Shown piece by piece: positions 3,440 to 58,813 of a stretch of 58,816 nucleotides of DNA. The position numbers were made by a program, and so were the translations under genes. Within the stretch, counting starts at the first letter, position 1; each line of letters begins with the position of its first letter. The notes below the pieces were generated by a model. It did no database searches and had not been told where the DNA came from. It was given only the letters and a program-made list of their open reading frames with translations. Source of the DNA: Gemmatimonadota bacterium (GTDB lineage Bacteria > Latescibacterota > UBA2968 > UBA8231); the NCBI GenBank assembly GCA_038153405.1, contig JAYOYH010000027.1:1-58816 (forward strand). The letters are read 5' to 3'.

Positions 3440-3514
3440 TGGCAGCCCGGCGAGGACTCGAACCTCGATAAACGGAACCAAAATCCGTTGTCCTGCCAAT
3501 TGAACGACCGGGCT
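3440..3514 (-). tRNA. tRNA-Gln(UUG)
   Basis: Cloverleaf: acceptor AGCCCGG/CCGGGCT, anticodon arm ACGGA-TT TTG GT-TCCGT, T arm CGAGG-TTCGAGT-CCTCG, encoded CCA. Confidence 0.96.
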
Positions 3515-4464: not shown

Positions 4465-7400
4465 ATGTCTGCATTAAACTACGCGGCGCGCTTTGCCCTG
4501 GCGACGCTCCTGTTCGTCTCGCCCACTGCGGCGCAGCAGAGCGGTGACGACGATTTCAAACTGGCGCGCAATCTCTATCGCGACGCCGGCGACTACGCCA
4601 CGTCCTCTACGCTCTTTGCCGAGTTTCTCCGCAACTACCCCGATAGCCCGCAGCGCGCCGAGGCGCGACTGATGCTGGCGCGCGCTTACCGCAACAGCGA
4701 CCGCTGCGAACTGGCAGCGGCTGCCTACGAGACTTTTTTCCTCGAACACCCAGACCACTTGGCCACCGCCGATGCGCGCCGCGAGCGGGCTGCCTGTCTA
4801 TCACTACTCGGCCAGTATGCAGAAGCGGCGCGTGCCTACGAAGACGTGCAGCGGCGCTTCAGCGCCAGCGACTTTGCCGCCGCCGCGCTAATCGATGCGG
4901 CAGCCAACTACACGTATGGACAGGATATAGAGCGCGCGGTGGATATATACCAGCGCGTGCTCGACGAATACGGCACCAGTGCGGCCGTCCACCAGGCCCG
5001 CTACCAGCTAGCCCGTCTGTTCTTTGCCGCCGGGCGGCCCGACGAGGCGCAGCGCCTGCTGGGGCAAATAACGATGGCTCGACCCATCCCGGAACAGGCG
5101 GCCTCTGCCCAACTGTTAAACGGTCGCATTGATCTGTTCTTGGGCAATCGCGACGGCGCGTCAGAAAAGTTTGCCGTGCTCTACGAACGCTTTGCGCGCA
5201 CGCCGCAGGCCGATAGTGCCCATGTCGACTACGCCAACCATCTCTACGAGCAACGCCTCTTTAGCCAGGCCGGTGACGCCTTTGCACGAGCGCTCTCCGC
5301 GGCAAAAGACGCGGCGCTGCAGCGCCGCGCCTTGCTGGGCCTGGCCGATGCCCGGCGCCAGAGTCGGCAGACGGCCGAGGCGCTCGAACACTACAGGAGT
5401 CTGCTGCAACAGCTGCGGGCCGGCGACCAAGACTATTTGCGCGCGCGCTTAGGCCAGGCCGTGGCCCTCGGGCAAGCCGGGCAATTCGCCCTGGCTGTGG
5501 GCCTGTTTCAGGGCCTGATACAGATTGGCGAAGGCCCGGAAGCGCTGGCGGCCCTGCGCGAGCTGGGCGCGCTTTACCGAGCGCGCGGCGATCACAGCCG
5601 TGCCATCACCTGGTATCGCCGCTACCTGCAGGAGACCGACGAGTCGGCCGTCGACGCCCAGGCCGTGCGCGCCGTGCTGGCCGAACTCTACGCCTCGACC
5701 GGCTATCGCGAGGAAGCGGTTGCCATCTATCGCCAACTGGCATCTGGACAGGGCACCGTAGCGGCCGAGGCGCAGTACGGACTGGCCAGCACGTTTGAAT
5801 CGGGCGGCCAGCCGCGCGAAGCGCTGCGCGAATACGTGGCCTATCTCGAGCTCTTTCCGGGTGCGCCGCAGGCCGAAGCAGCGCGCCAGCGCATCGAATA
5901 CCTGCGCGAGTTTACCGTGATGAATCCGGCCGAGCTGAGCCGCGCCCTGCAGCAGGCTTGGATCGACGAGCTCAGCGGCACTCCGCGCCAGAGCGTGCAG
6001 CTAGACGTCGCACACGCCCTCTTTGAACACCACGACTTCGAGAGCGCCGCCCGCTCGTTTGAGCACTACGCGGCGGCCTATGCCAACGGCACCTACGGAC
6101 CGGAGGGCCAGTTCTTCTTGGCCGAAAGCCTGCTCAACCTGGCGCGCCAGCGCACCATGGAGGAGCGGCCGCTGCAGGCCGACTCGCTGCGCGAGCTCGC
6201 CCTGCAGGAGTACCGCATTCTCGCGCGCGCCGAGGGATCGTCTTGGGCGCAGCGGGCCCAACTGCGGCTGATTGAGGTCGAGGCCGATAGCGGGCCCGAC
6301 TCGCTGCGGCTGCCCACGCTCGAAGAGGGCTTTGCGCGCTTTGTCAGCACCTACGGCCGCGAGGGCAGCGAACACCTCGACCAGGCCCTGTTCCAGCTGG
6401 CCGAGGCGCGGCGTGCGCTGGGTGACGACGTCAAGCTGAATTCGGCCATTGCCGACTACCAGAGTCTGCGCCGGCTCTTTCCGCAGAGCCCACTGGTATC
6501 GCAGGCGCTCTTTGGCATCGGCCTGTGCCTGGCCCAGCGCGGTCAGTACGATGCGGCCGCCGACTCGCTGGAGCGCATGCTGCAGAGCTATCCCGAAAGC
6601 CCGCTGGCGGCCAACGCCCTATTTGAGCTGGGACAGATGCGCCTGGCCCAGTCGCTGCCCCAACAGGCCATCGGTCGACTGCAGGAGCTGCGCTGGGGCT
6701 ATCCGGCCTTTCCTGCACGCCGCAGGGCACTGCTGCTGCTGGCCGATACCTACTTCTCGCTGGGCGAGTACGCCGCCGCTGCCGAGATCTACCGACCGCT
6801 GGCCGAGGCCACCGGCGTGCGCGATCCGGGCGGTCGCGTGCGCCGACAGCTGGCCCGCGCCTACCACCACATGGGACTGTATGGCCCAGCCCTGCAGACC
6901 TATCGACGCTTAGTAGACGATGAGACCGAGGCCGCTGCGCGCGACAGCATCTATTTCGATCAGGCCGTCCTACTGGTGCGCTTGGGCCAAGAAGACGAAG
7001 CCGTGCGCCAGTTTCTCGCCGTGCGCGACGCCTTTCCCGATGCGCCGTTGGCCGACCAGGCCGGTGCCCGCGCTGGACACATAGCCTTTGCCCTAGAGCA
7101 GTACGACGAGGCCCAGCGCATCTACGCACCCCTGCTGGAAAAGGACGTCCCCGACTCGCTGGTCTACGGCCAGTATGCCCTCGCCCTCTTTCGCCTACAG
7201 CGCATTGAAGAGGGGCGCAAGGCGGCCAAGCGCTACGCCAAACACATGGGCAATAAGGCGGAGTGGGACCAGCGCTTTCTGCTGGAAGAGGGGCGCTATT
7301 ACCAGCGCAAAAAGGAGTATGACAAGGCGCTTAAGGCCTTCCGCGACGTGGTCAAAAAAGGCGGTAGCGCAGCGAGCGAAGGGGCCTATTACGCTGCCGA

Positions 7401-21130: not shown

Positions 21131-21751
21131 ATGATTCGAATGGAAGTCAGCGGGGTCTACAATAGCAGCCCCCAATCCTCCTATCCCCAGGTCGTCCTCA
21201 AAGAAGTGGACGGTCAGGCTTATCTGCCCATCATCATTGGGCGCTTTGAGGCGGCTGCCATTTCCATGGCGCAAAACGACCAGAGGCCCGCTCGGCCCAT
21301 CAGCTACGACCTAGCGCGGCAGATTCTAGTCGGCATGGACTCGAAAATTACCAAGGTGGAAATCACCGACCTGCACGAGAGCACGTACTACGCCCAGGTG
21401 CACCTGTTGGACGGCGATGGATGCGAACACGTGCTGGATGCGCGGCCGAGCGACGCCATTGCCCTAGCCCTGCGCTTTGGCGCGCCCATATTCGCTGCGC
21501 GGCAGATTTTGGAAGAGGCCGGATTCCTTAAAACGGCGGAAGCTGCCCTCGCTGAGCCGCTGGCCAGCACCGACGACGACCAACCCGTCGCCGTGCTCGA
21601 AGAGCGCCCATTTCCCGCCGTTGTCGCCGAGCCCCTAAGCGAGTTGGAGCAGCTAAAACGCCGCATGGAACAGGCCATTGCCGAAGAGGTGTACGAAGAA
21701 GCGGCGCGGCTGCGCGACGAGATACACCGCCGCGAAAATCTCGAACAATAG
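21131..21751 (+). CDS. Bifunctional nuclease (DUF151) domain protein with C-terminal UVR motif, copy 1
   Basis: LPIIIGRFEAAAI, DARPSDAIALA, and AIAEEVYEEAARLRDEI. Confidence 0.9.
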   Translation: MIRMEVSGVYNSSPQSSYPQVVLKEVDGQAYLPIIIGRFEAAAISMAQNDQRPARPISYDLARQILVGMDSKITKVEITDLHESTYYAQVHLLDGDGCEHVLDARPSDAIALALRFGAPIFAARQILEEAGFLKTAEAALAEPLASTDDDQPVAVLEERPFPAVVAEPLSELEQLKRRMEQAIAEEVYEEAARLRDEIHRRENLEQ

Positions 21752-21774
21752 GACGGATACGAGGTTCCAATACA

Positions 21775-22470
21775 ATGGGTGCCACTTCTCTAGTTGAGAT
21801 GGTTGTCGTGAAAGTGAGTCCCTACCTGCGCGAAGACCGACCGCTCGTTTGGCTAGGCGAAAAGGGCGCCGAGCAGCCGCGACTGCTGCCCATCGCCATC
21901 GGCGAGTTCGAGGCGGCGGCCATACAGATGCAGCTGGAGCAGGACGAGCCCATCCGCCCCATTTCCTACGATCTGCTCTCTTCTATGCTGGATCGCCTGC
22001 AGGTCGACGTGCGCCAGGTCGTTATTCACACCGTTCGGCGCTCCATATACTACGCCAAAGTCGTCGTGGAAAAGGGCCATAAAATACAGGATGTTGACTC
22101 GCGCCCAAGCGACGCCATTGCCTTGGCCCTGCGAACGGGATCGCCCATTTTCGTCTCGCGAGAACTGCTCGACAAGGTCGGCCTCGAACCGCTCGACACA
22201 GAGGTCGATATCGAAAACACCCTCGACCGCTTTTACGAGATGGAGCCGCAAATTGCCGGCGTGCTGTCCGACGCCGGTCAAGAGATCGGCGGCGAAGACC
22301 GCGCCCCGGAGAGCGTTGACGGCGGCGAGGGGGAAGAGGCTATTGATGAACTGGACGAATTGGGCCTGCTTCAAGCGCAATTAGAGCAAGCTGTCCTGTG
22401 CGAAGAATACGAAGAGGCTGCGCGCCTTCGCGACGAAATCGAGTCGCTGGGCAACGAGGGCCTGTCCTAG
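21775..22470 (+). CDS. Bifunctional nuclease (DUF151) domain protein with C-terminal UVR motif, copy 2
   Basis: LPIAIGEFEAAAI, DSRPSDAIALA, and AVLCEEYEEAARLRDEI. Confidence 0.9.
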   Translation: MGATSLVEMVVVKVSPYLREDRPLVWLGEKGAEQPRLLPIAIGEFEAAAIQMQLEQDEPIRPISYDLLSSMLDRLQVDVRQVVIHTVRRSIYYAKVVVEKGHKIQDVDSRPSDAIALALRTGSPIFVSRELLDKVGLEPLDTEVDIENTLDRFYEMEPQIAGVLSDAGQEIGGEDRAPESVDGGEGEEAIDELDELGLLQAQLEQAVLCEEYEEAARLRDEIESLGNEGLS

Positions 22471-24140: not shown

Positions 24141-24680
24141 CTACTCGTCGGGCTCCAATCCCATGCTTTCCAGCATGGCCATCAGCCCATTCCACTGCTT
24201 GTCGCTCATGGCCTCTACCAGCTTAATCAGCCCCGGTACATTGCGCTTTTTCCCGACCTCATAACACCGCTCAAACGCATCCACCCAGTTGGAATCGGAC
24301 AGCCCGGCGGCAATCCCCGGACGACCCAGCGCGTCCAACACGTTTGGATCAAAGGGCGCATCGGTTTCCAATAGTTGGCTGACGACGGCGTCTGTGAGGG
24401 CGCGCTCCATCAGCGCGAAGAGCGCGCGCGCAGGGGCGGGCGAGTCGGCGGCACGCGCCTCGTAGGCGGCCAGCAAAACGCGCGTCGTGTCGAGTTTTAG
24501 CACCTCGGCCAGCTTTACACACACCTCGTCGGAGGGAACCTTTTCGCCTTTCTCTATCTGCCCCACATACGTCGCCCACACGCCTTCGGGCTTCTGCGCT
24601 GTCTTCAATTGCTCGGCCAACGCGCGCTGACTAATGCGGGCGCCGAGGCGAGCGTCTTTTATCATATCGGCAAACGGCAT
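24141..24680 (-). CDS. XRE-family helix-turn-helix transcriptional regulator
   Basis: IKDARLGARISQRALAEQL...YVGQIEKGEKVPS...LAEVL pattern. Confidence 0.88.
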   Translation of the reverse strand: MPFADMIKDARLGARISQRALAEQLKTAQKPEGVWATYVGQIEKGEKVPSDEVCVKLAEVLKLDTTRVLLAAYEARAADSPAPARALFALMERALTDAVVSQLLETDAPFDPNVLDALGRPGIAAGLSDSNWVDAFERCYEVGKKRNVPGLIKLVEAMSDKQWNGLMAMLESMGLEPDE

Positions 24681-24751
24681 TCTTTAAGTTCCTATAAAAT
24701 AAACACTTGGGTTTTGTTAAATCGAGTTTATACTCCGCGCCATACCTCACC

Positions 24752-24780
24752 AATATATACACCAACAAGTGTGTGTGCAA
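24752..24780 (-). promoter_or_regulatory. Putative sigma70 promoter of the XRE gene
   Basis: Minus strand TTGCAC-17 nt-TATATT. The spacer holds a TACAC-N6-GTGTG inverted repeat. Confidence 0.6.
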
Positions 24781-24816
24781 GTTCTTGGAGCATTTTCTAT
24801 TTTCGACAAATAGTTC

Positions 24817-24845
24817 TTGACAACACAAAGTAGCGTGTGTAAATT
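24817..24845 (+). promoter_or_regulatory. Putative strong sigma70 promoter of the candidate ncRNA
   Basis: TTGACA-17 nt-TAAATT with TGTG extended -10. Confidence 0.65.
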
Positions 24846-24850
24846 ATGGC

Positions 24851-25126
24851 AGGATTTAGGTACACTGTCGCAGGCAAATAGTTGACACACTGCCTTGTGC
24901 GTGTGTGGAAAACGTTTTGAGTGTGGCGGTCTGCTGAGTGAGTAAATCCTTACCGTAAAGCTCGGATTCCCCTTTTCGGGCCACTGGGGTCTTCAAAATT
25001 ACCTCCCCACACCGCCTCGTTTGAGGATCTCAATTTACGGTTTGTGATCGCACAGTTCGACCGCTACACTCTTGATTTTGTGACCGAGGCGACCCATCTT
25101 TCCCTGATGGGTCGCCTCTCTTTTTT
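24851..25126 (+). ncRNA. Candidate structured non-coding RNA (long rod; 6S-like or novel)
   Basis: ORF-free stretch between a promoter and an intrinsic terminator. Nested helices: 24919-31/25059-71, 24933-41/25048-56, 24952-59/25034-41, 24964-69/25025-30, 24985-89/25005-09. Confidence 0.6.
25086..25126 (+). terminator. Intrinsic terminator
   Basis: Perfect 13-bp stem GAGGCGACCCATC/GATGGGTCGCCTC followed by TCTTTTTT. Confidence 0.88.
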
Positions 25127-25159
25127 ACGCGTAATCACCCTTCGTTAGAACAGTATCCC

Positions 25160-26278
25160 ATGCACATCTGTATGGTTGCATTCAGCGATCTGCGCTTCGA
25201 CTACCGGATTTTCCGCGAAGCGACGTCGTTGCACGGGGCCGGGCACAGCGTGACGATTATCGCCGCCGCTTTCAGCGCCGCACCGCTGGACGGTTGGGAT
25301 GCTTTCGACACCCACTTGATACCGATAGACCGCAGCCGTTCGCTTCGCCTGCTCTACCCGCTGTTCTGGCGTAGAGTTGGGCAGATACTCGAACACGTGA
25401 GAGCCGACGCCTACCACGCTCACGACCTCGACGCCCTATGGCCCTGCGCGCGGGCTGCCCGGCGCAGCCGTCGGCCCCTGATCTACGACTCGCACGAGTT
25501 CTGGACGGAGCAGTCCTCGCTTGTAAACAGGCCGTTGATGCGCGGCATCTGGAACCTTCTCGAAGGGAGACTCGTCGAACGCGTGGATCGAGCCATTACC
25601 GTCAGCCCTTCCATCGCCCACTCGCTGGAGAAGCGCTACCCATCGCTGGGATCCATTGCCGTACTGCGCAACCTGCCCCTCTACAAACCGCACGAGCAGA
25701 GCGACCGGATTCGCCAGACCCTCGGCTTGGCTCCGGATCGACCCATTGTGCTGTATCAGGGCGGCTTCCTAACGGGCAACGGCTTGCGCGAGCAAATACG
25801 GGCAGCAGGAGCGTTCGGCGACGCGGCTTTTGTTCTGATAGGAGACGGGCCGTGCGAAGCGGAGTTAAAAGAGCTGGTGCGCAGCCTGCAGTTCGAAGAG
25901 CGCGTGTATTTCATAGACCGCGTGCCCTTCCACCAGCTGCACGCCTACACCTGTTCGGCCGATCTGGGGCTTTGCCTTATCAAGGGCACGGGACAGAGCT
26001 TCTACTACTCGCTGCCCAACAAGCTCTTTGAGTACATGATGGGAGGTCTGCCCGTGCTGGCCAGCAACTTTCCAGAAATGCAGCGCGTCGTAGAAGAGAC
26101 TGGCGCGGGGGTCGTGGCCGATCCCAGCGACGGCGAAGCCATTGGCCGGGCGGTGCACGCCCTGCTATCCGATGAGCAGGGCCGCGCTCGGCAGCGCGAA
26201 GCCGCTCTGCGCGCCGCCCAACAGTTCAACTGGGAGCGCGAGGCCGAGGGACTCGTGCAGCTCTACGCCGAACTTTAG
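25160..26278 (+). CDS. Glycosyltransferase family 4
   Basis: YHAHD, IYDSHE, LPNKLFEYMMGGLPVLAS motifs. Confidence 0.93.
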   Translation: MHICMVAFSDLRFDYRIFREATSLHGAGHSVTIIAAAFSAAPLDGWDAFDTHLIPIDRSRSLRLLYPLFWRRVGQILEHVRADAYHAHDLDALWPCARAARRSRRPLIYDSHEFWTEQSSLVNRPLMRGIWNLLEGRLVERVDRAITVSPSIAHSLEKRYPSLGSIAVLRNLPLYKPHEQSDRIRQTLGLAPDRPIVLYQGGFLTGNGLREQIRAAGAFGDAAFVLIGDGPCEAELKELVRSLQFEERVYFIDRVPFHQLHAYTCSADLGLCLIKGTGQSFYYSLPNKLFEYMMGGLPVLASNFPEMQRVVEETGAGVVADPSDGEAIGRAVHALLSDEQGRARQREAALRAAQQFNWEREAEGLVQLYAEL

Positions 26279-53541: not shown

Positions 53542-55848
<2,307 letters not shown>

Positions 55849-58525: not shown

Positions 58526-58608
58526 GGAGGGTACGCGAATGGTTAGCAACCGGTCTTGAAAACCGGGGTCCGTAAGGATTGGGGGTTCGAATCCCCTGCC
58601 CTCCGCCA
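58526..58608 (+). tRNA. tRNA-Ser(UGA)
   Basis: Anticodon arm CCGGT-CT TGA AA-ACCGG, long variable arm, GGTTCGAATCC, G73-CCA. Confidence 0.9.
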
Positions 58609-58634
58609 GATTATAGAGAAAATAAAAAGGCCAT

Positions 58635-58727
<93 letters not shown>

Positions 58728-58737
58728 GTTGTCACGT

Positions 58738-58813
58738 TGCCCCCTAGCACAATTGGAAGTGCGCCTGACTCTGGATCAGGAGGTTCTAGGTTCGAGCCCT
58801 AGGGGGGCAGCCA
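58738..58813 (+). tRNA. tRNA-Gln(CUG)
   Basis: TGCCCCC/GGGGGCA acceptor, CCTGA-CT CTG GA-TCAGG anticodon arm, CCA. Confidence 0.97.

Follow-up and report, generated by a model that had tools for sequence, protein, structure and literature searches.

A structured RNA of one Latescibacterota family and two predicted antisense partners of its apical loop

In the RNAI/RNAII and CopA/CopT pairs and in type I antitoxins, a short structured antisense RNA starts pairing at a loop of its target and extends this contact to a long duplex. Pairing between small RNAs comparable to that of RoxS and RosA of Bacillus subtilis is said to link RsaE and RsaI of Staphylococcus aureus. In the RoxS/RosA case, according to PMC8216469, G-rich regions pair with C-rich regions and destabilise RoxS. 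The 6C RNA of Actinobacteria, as presented in PMC6486639, uses C-rich loops to pair with mRNAs without the help of chaperones.

The RNA described here lies in a window of 58,816 nucleotides, by which we mean the whole stretch of DNA that was analysed; coordinates are positions within it, G000 is the genome carrying it and other G-numbers denote relatives. This RNA represents a new family, as does each of its two predicted antisense partners, A and B; the circuit predicted for them operates along known lines. Its closest working model is RoxS with the sponge RosA: as in the RoxS/FsrA-RosA system described in PMC8216469, a C-rich RNA from a lineage in which Hfq was not found (0 of 5 genomes) faces a trans-encoded G-rich RNA that is predicted to pair with it. 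The two systems share no sequence or Rfam similarity, and neither the RoxS/RsaE nor the 6C model of Rfam matches the core. Moreover, the sizes are reversed, the G-rich partners measuring ~55 and ~110 nt as against ~229 nt for RosA; there are two partners with one common, near-perfect seed of 17-18 nt; and the C-rich RNA folds into a closed rod that contains a three-way junction. C-rich hairpin loops are also shared with 6C RNA, but here the hairpins sit on a long closing rod and the best complement of the main loop is a small RNA, not an mRNA. The predicted start at a loop and extension to a long duplex recall the kissing-loop systems, from which this one differs: its partners are encoded in trans, from two chromosomal loci far apart, and neither a replication primer nor a toxin ORF can be seen.

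The RNA gene is real and has its own promoter, core and terminator. A sigma-70-type promoter (TTGACA-17-TAAATT, 24817-24845, plus strand), which the sequence-only reading had already singled out as near-consensus, is confirmed, and a script found a promoter at 24 of the 27 loci of this RNA. The leader that follows (24852-24918, with an estimated start site) is variable, about -2 to 119 nt long across those 24 loci and nearly missing in some relatives, and is probably processed off the precursor. Next comes the conserved core (24919-25071, plus strand), in which a closing stem leads through an irregular rod to a three-way junction with hairpins A and B; it measures ~155 nt in the window and 147-172 nt among homologues. 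The gene ends in an intrinsic terminator (25086-25126, plus strand), whose 13-bp stem at 25086-25118 is as perfect as first described and is followed by a U-tract; a terminator separate from the core is present at 25 of the 27 loci. In G000 the 5′ arm of the terminator (25084-25091) is complementary to 7 nt of the loop of hairpin B, a match that is not conserved. Of the ~275-nt unit originally proposed, the span from promoter to terminator holds, but what is conserved is the ~155-nt core and not a ~275-nt transcript. The assignment to the plus strand is borne out by a score of 166.8 bits on that strand of the window, antisense matches of homologues reaching at most 28.8 bits, and the absence of an ORF by a longest frame of 16 codons in leader plus core.

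Public RNA sequencing runs are in line with such a unit. Twenty RNA runs from 18 studies contain a small share of the words of 24700-25200, and contigs touch the core in all eight of those runs that were examined, mostly starting inside it and covering mainly the core. In run X6 a contig spans 24925-25071 at a depth of 190.9, with flanks at 2.7 and 4.95; in X7 the core has a depth of about 71 and one flanking piece 2.7. Since these contigs are unstranded and come from relatives, and the runs were chosen with this very stretch and without a DNA control, they support but do not prove a discrete, abundant core RNA. The X6 core contig closes on itself, in one of the eight runs; its 15-nt junction equals the reverse complement of 25011-25025, and for this reason the circle was set aside as a probable artefact of reverse transcription or assembly.

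The region folds far better than expected by chance, with a stability z-score of -6.6 for 24850-25130 and -5.3 for 24910-25080, and none of 200 shuffles was as stable in either case. In the supported fold the closing stem has 13 bp, the irregular rod is followed by a stem of 6 bp, and hairpins A and B branch from the three-way junction above it. In a MAFFT alignment of 20 sequences 95.4% of the cells pair and two-sided changes occur in 14 of 41 pairs, values matched by none of 500 shuffles, slid controls pairing at 39-48%; in a 30-sequence alignment, which was fitted to the model and thus leans towards the structure, two-sided changes occur in 25 of 40 pairs. The closing stem P1 (5′ arm 24919-24931, paired with 25059-25071) is nearly invariant in sequence, for which reason it is possibly a protein-binding or processing site. 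Stem P3 (5′ arm 24953-24958, paired with 25035-25040) shows two-sided changes in all six of its pairs. Hairpin A (24961-24980) carries a C-rich loop at 24967-24974, and the 12-bp hairpin B (24985-25032), with two-sided changes in 10 of its 12 pairs, opens into loop B (24997-25020); all lie on the plus strand. The mean unpaired probability in G000 is 0.82 for loop B and 0.93 for loop A. Collecting homologues and analysing covariation, as had been suggested, shows a core conserved within its family with covarying helices. The nested rod initially drawn keeps its closing stem and its inner stem (P3), both conserved and covarying, and loses its apical part: of the 20 aligned homologues 4 keep GGATTC/GGATCT intact, 6 TGGGG/CCCCA, 9 CCTC/GAGG and 3 GCTG/CAGT, the last count depending on the alignment. 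Furthermore, GAGG (25023-25026) and GGATCT (25025-25030) overlap, so both helices cannot form. Those apical hairpins were rejected, since covariation gives two hairpins with C-rich loops instead.

The RNA appears restricted to a single family of uncultured bacteria in the Latescibacterota. A BLAST search recovered the core from 20 of 36 genomes of the family and from 0 of 24 others, and a first covariance model raised the former figure to 26 of 36. A second model found it in 46 of 63 family genomes, always at one locus per genome, and in none of 86 genomes from 13 other families of the phylum. Outside the family, homologues were likewise not found when the HEAT-gene loci of five f2/f3 genomes were inspected, next to L249-L252 (of the XRE relatives searched, the four most distant) or, as an exact loop match, among viral contigs. 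Within the family, it was not found at E<=1 in G022, G024, G029, G032 and G035, several family genomes being near-complete; because it is missing from the syntenic site of G024, a single-contig genome, and from G022, G029, G032 and G035, the RNA is probably dispensable. Rfam gave nothing relevant at gathering level over the whole window, at E<=10 for 24700-25200 or at E<=5 for eight homologue loci, so the all-family search suggested earlier produced no relevant match. The RNA is not described in the literature searched on the lineage, the scope of which stopped short of subscription papers and supplementary motif tables. The proposal of a stand-alone, undescribed small RNA has therefore stood the test, given its own promoter, its terminator at most loci, its persistence without the downstream gene (see below) and the lack of an Rfam match.

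The most conserved part of the RNA is a near-invariant 18-mer of loop B (25002-25019, plus strand), antisense to partners A and B over 17-18 nt. It overlaps ACCUCC (25001-25006), which matches the 16S anti-Shine-Dalgarno sequence of G000, and is identical in 50 of 53 further loci, a set that overlaps the earlier ones and is dominated by one genus. A scan of the whole G000 genome found exactly two sites with at least 15 Watson-Crick complementary nucleotides, both in small intergenic terminator units; at least two such sites turned up in 0.2% of 2000 dinucleotide shuffles of loop B. Predicted partner A (~55 nt; contig C14 of G000, about 53654-53712, plus strand) runs from a promoter through a short 5′ arm and the seed to a terminator and lies before zwf. 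Predicted partner B (~110 nt; contig C62 of G000, about 21274-21159, minus strand) also has a terminator and lies between a REC-AraC gene and rlmKL. Counting self-matches, 21 of 61 genomes, each of them from the family, contain the 15-mer pattern, a reversed control giving 2 hits overall; once self-matches are removed, all extra sites are homologues of A or B except two coding ones. Chance 15-mers in coding regions were dropped (L159, L160, L195, L197, L198-L211 and a G000 site on C17), among them L195/L197, which had looked like a second partner in genus g3.

A covariance model of partner A found it in 22 of 36 family genomes besides G000, and among the 24 loci that were examined it mostly precedes tal, zwf or glk; its place beside central-carbon genes is a further likeness to the RoxS/RosA and RsaE/RsaI systems. 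Although its 5′ arm varies, 21 of 23 copies form the 5′ hairpin, as would suit pairing that starts at a loop. The 18-nt seed of partner B is invariant in all 11 copies, from two genera, amid variable flanks. After opening costs, the net pairing energy in G000 is -21 kcal/mol for A and -25 kcal/mol for B. Loop B pairs only weakly with the SRP, tmRNA and RNase P RNAs (-13 to -22 kcal/mol). Co-folding of the core with A or B in ViennaRNA, which cannot model loop-loop duplexes, gave no complex. Weak matches of the partner A model were also seen in G051 and on contig C5 of G028. Partner B is present twice in G003 (L165, L171), and partner A, with an extended terminator, twice in G023 (L145, L170), either through duplication or through contamination of the bins. 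Upstream of partner B (L138, about 5270-5320, and in the alignment) CTTGTG and CASTTTCA form conserved blocks whose spacing is nearly fixed; they are possibly an alternative-sigma promoter or a REC-AraC site.

Loop B and partner A appear to have changed together. Wherever a complete RNA occurs together with partner A, which is the case in 18 genomes, a duplex of 17-23 bp at -33.9 to -46.2 kcal/mol is predicted. In genus g3 (G009, G025) a C to U change in the loop is matched by a G to A change in the syntenic partner A, which still precedes transaldolase; this two-sided change is a single event in two sister genomes, G-U pairing would also be tolerated, and with the canonical partner the g3 loop forms an equally good duplex or better (-36.4 vs -33.9 for G009). 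The duplex variants of G017 and G019 are G-U-compatible, as are most variants in paired genomes, and G015 and G028 have one mismatch each. In the assessment of presence and loss, which covered the genomes other than G034, loop B departs from the consensus at one to many positions in all nine RNA-bearing genomes without an intact partner A, and the six of these nine whose syntenic site could be checked lack partner A there. With at most 150 candidates scored per genome, the partner A model found nothing in 12 genomes, apart from the decayed-seed copy of G013; in G013 and G029 the seed has decayed and the promoter and terminator are kept. On an rny tree (a single gene from 39 genomes, not including G018 and G007, with weakly supported deep nodes), losses of partner A fall on at least 2-3 branches, among them the sisters G027, where both elements are intact, and G013, where both have decayed. 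Decayed pairs bind weakly (-18.4 kcal/mol in G013 and -16.1 kcal/mol in genus g10), so that what is seen here is loss and not compensation. Four fragmented genomes have partner A and no match to the RNA, and in each of them the flanking genes are also missing or cut. Altogether, the duplex looks like the main constraint on the sequences of loop B and its partners.

With moderate confidence we favour a three-RNA regulatory circuit in which the structured core RNA would pair through loop B with A and B, both acting as its antagonists. A strong sigma-70 promoter, under repression by XRE in those genomes that have it, would produce a precursor that is trimmed to the stable core of ~155 nt. The core would then act as an effector without Hfq, most likely through C-rich, anti-Shine-Dalgarno-like loops that pair with the ribosome-binding sites of mRNAs or, alternatively, through a protein that binds the invariant closing stem. 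Partner A would usually display part of its seed in a small hairpin loop and touch loop B with it; extension of this contact to the 17-23-bp duplex would block loop B and might trigger cleavage. Using the same seed, partner B would relay a further signal, that of the adjacent REC-AraC regulator. That the core has an output of its own, which A and B antagonise, is suggested by the persistence of its promoter, closing stem and C-rich loops in genomes that lack the partners. This output is the weakest step of the proposal, because 4111 crude predicted start regions of one genome yielded no outstanding mRNA target for loop B or for the seed of partner A.

Such a circuit would join three undescribed RNA families of an uncultured phylum from sequence alone, the link resting on a two-sided base change between separate genes and on coordinated decay on separate branches. 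Pairs of a small RNA and its sponge such as RoxS/RosA came from cross-linking in model organisms. The proposal bears on RNA regulation in lineages where neither Hfq nor 6S RNA has been detected, and further orphan RNA motifs could be given partners in the same way, by searching the genome for sequences complementary to a loop that does not vary.

The antagonism might run in the opposite direction, A and B being sibling small RNAs that regulate mRNAs through a shared seed and the abundant, stable core being their sponge. We think this unlikely: the partners do have the usual anatomy of one shared seed plus terminator, loop B conservation does track the presence of partner A and the core does seem abundant, but the core keeps promoter, closing stem and C-rich loops in nine genomes without an intact partner A, the A seed decays in G013 and G029 while its promoter and terminator persist, and that seed has no clear mRNA target. 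The position of partner A before tal, zwf or glk in most of 24 loci would also suit a core that attenuates this operon in trans, loop B taking the first two G of the partner A terminator stem and so allowing read-through, and the predicted duplex does cover all six G residues, including the two that start the stem. Such attenuation is nevertheless very improbable, given a separate promoter-like site after the terminator (at 10 of 24 loci by script, and visible by eye in genomes without partner A) and a partner B seed that does not touch its own terminator. Type I systems typically combine long-range pairing of 5′ and 3′ ends with short antisense RNAs, and the GT4 glycosyltransferase gene (25160-26278, plus strand) stands directly downstream of the RNA in most loci; a type I toxin mRNA with antitoxin RNAs, or a cis-acting leader or riboswitch of the GT4 operon, is for all that scarcely credible. 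The terminator separates RNA and operon at 25 of 27 loci, GT4 is a usual neighbour and not a required one (no orthologue was found in G017, which keeps the RNA, and in G025 the gene is separated from it), and as a toxin mRNA the unit would have ORFs that range from 9 to 88 codons in leader plus core of the homologues, are broken in frame by alignment gaps and, in some loci, have nearly no leader to lie in.

Proteins may instead be the target. The zapA-rny gap is a usual site of 6S RNA, and it measures 75 nt in G000 and is too short for 6S in most relatives among those listed (L024/L073-L120); this empty slot made a relocated 6S worth testing, and four ZapA-family genes above the Pfam cut-off were seen in G000 (L024-L027). 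The 6S model RF00013 matched nothing in any of the 61 genomes searched, neither it nor 6S-Flavo (RF01685) matched G000 at E<=1, and 6S was equally not found among eight further homologue loci at E<=5; control searches with RF00013 were positive in 4-5 of 14 known genomes. In this class 6S may have been lost or have become unrecognisable. A 6S-like RNA specific to this lineage, binding RNA polymerase or another protein and with the antisense partners as a switch for release or decay, would fit the missing 6S and, on the features of 6S given in PMC8414754, the size, single copy, apparent abundance and outer closing stem with small bulges, along with the strong promoter and the near-invariance of that stem. 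The central segment argues against it: this is the least conserved part (majority fraction 0.45), 11-25 nt by 7-12 nt in alignment columns, mostly paired and with a 5′ strand that forms a hairpin in G033, G026 and G012, so that at most a dynamic bubble may exist where 6S, in the same source, has a large conserved bulge. Only 6 bp separate this segment from the branched three-way junction, leaving no long unbranched apical stem; conservation peaks in the apical antisense loop; and the RNA lies outside the zapA-rny slot, as had been pointed out, is confined to the family, and is missing from the 86 genomes of other families and from several near-complete ones of its own. The divergent 6S RNA initially suggested is accordingly not what these data favour, and we give the 6S-like reading a small chance. 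A similarly small chance goes to the broader possibility that the core is an abundant protein-sequestering RNA, perhaps the family's replacement for 6S, which two chromosomal antisense RNAs switch off. If true, signals from carbon metabolism and from a two-component system would converge on one loop in a new design of RNA switch, in which switching off would not rely on an RNA made on the core as template. Hallmarks of SRP, tmRNA and RNase P RNA had been reported missing, in agreement with the Rfam results; SRP RNA is encoded elsewhere in G000. tmRNA and RNase P RNA were not found in the G000 assembly, where they are probably unassembled; a role of the RNA as their replacement was rejected, both being standard in five of five relatives, three of which also carry this RNA. 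A Y RNA was discarded as well, as no Ro60/TROVE gene was found in five genomes, including four near-complete relatives (control positive in 2 of 14).

Returning to the three-RNA circuit, its transcriptional input can be sought among the neighbours of the RNA, which in the window are a HEAT-repeat gene, a divergent gene for an XRE-family regulator (HTH_3; 24141-24680, minus strand) and GT4/GT2 glycosyltransferase genes. Two ACAC-N8-GTGT dyads, one between the XRE gene and the RNA promoter (24759-24774) and one inside the promoter spacer (24823-24838), are candidate XRE operators, and this pattern points to XRE as a repressor of the RNA. Scored at the loci with a script-found promoter, which leaves out three, spacer dyads occur at 14 of 16 XRE-adjacent loci, in both genomes with XRE elsewhere (G003, G007) and at 0 of 6 other loci; half-sites number 5-15 per 220 nt at XRE-adjacent loci vs 0-3 at six loci without adjacent XRE. 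XRE adjoins the RNA at 17 of 27 loci, and the other 10 keep the RNA without it, most of them in one weakly supported clade, so that they are not independent observations. Control by XRE, as first proposed, is consequently plausible from the dyads but not essential. The XRE gene of G025 is split by a ~1-kb insertion, another ~1.6 kb lying between RNA and GT4 (L129), and the leaders of XRE-less genomes have AT-rich inverted motifs upstream of the core (L048, L047, L057, L059, L060), which we take to resemble IHF sites. Elsewhere in the window there are one tRNA gene near the start (3443-3514) and a cluster of three at the end (58526-58810). Two tandem bifunctional-nuclease genes, each with a UvrB/C motif, occupy 21131-22470, and similar gene pairs lie near the RNA in several relatives.
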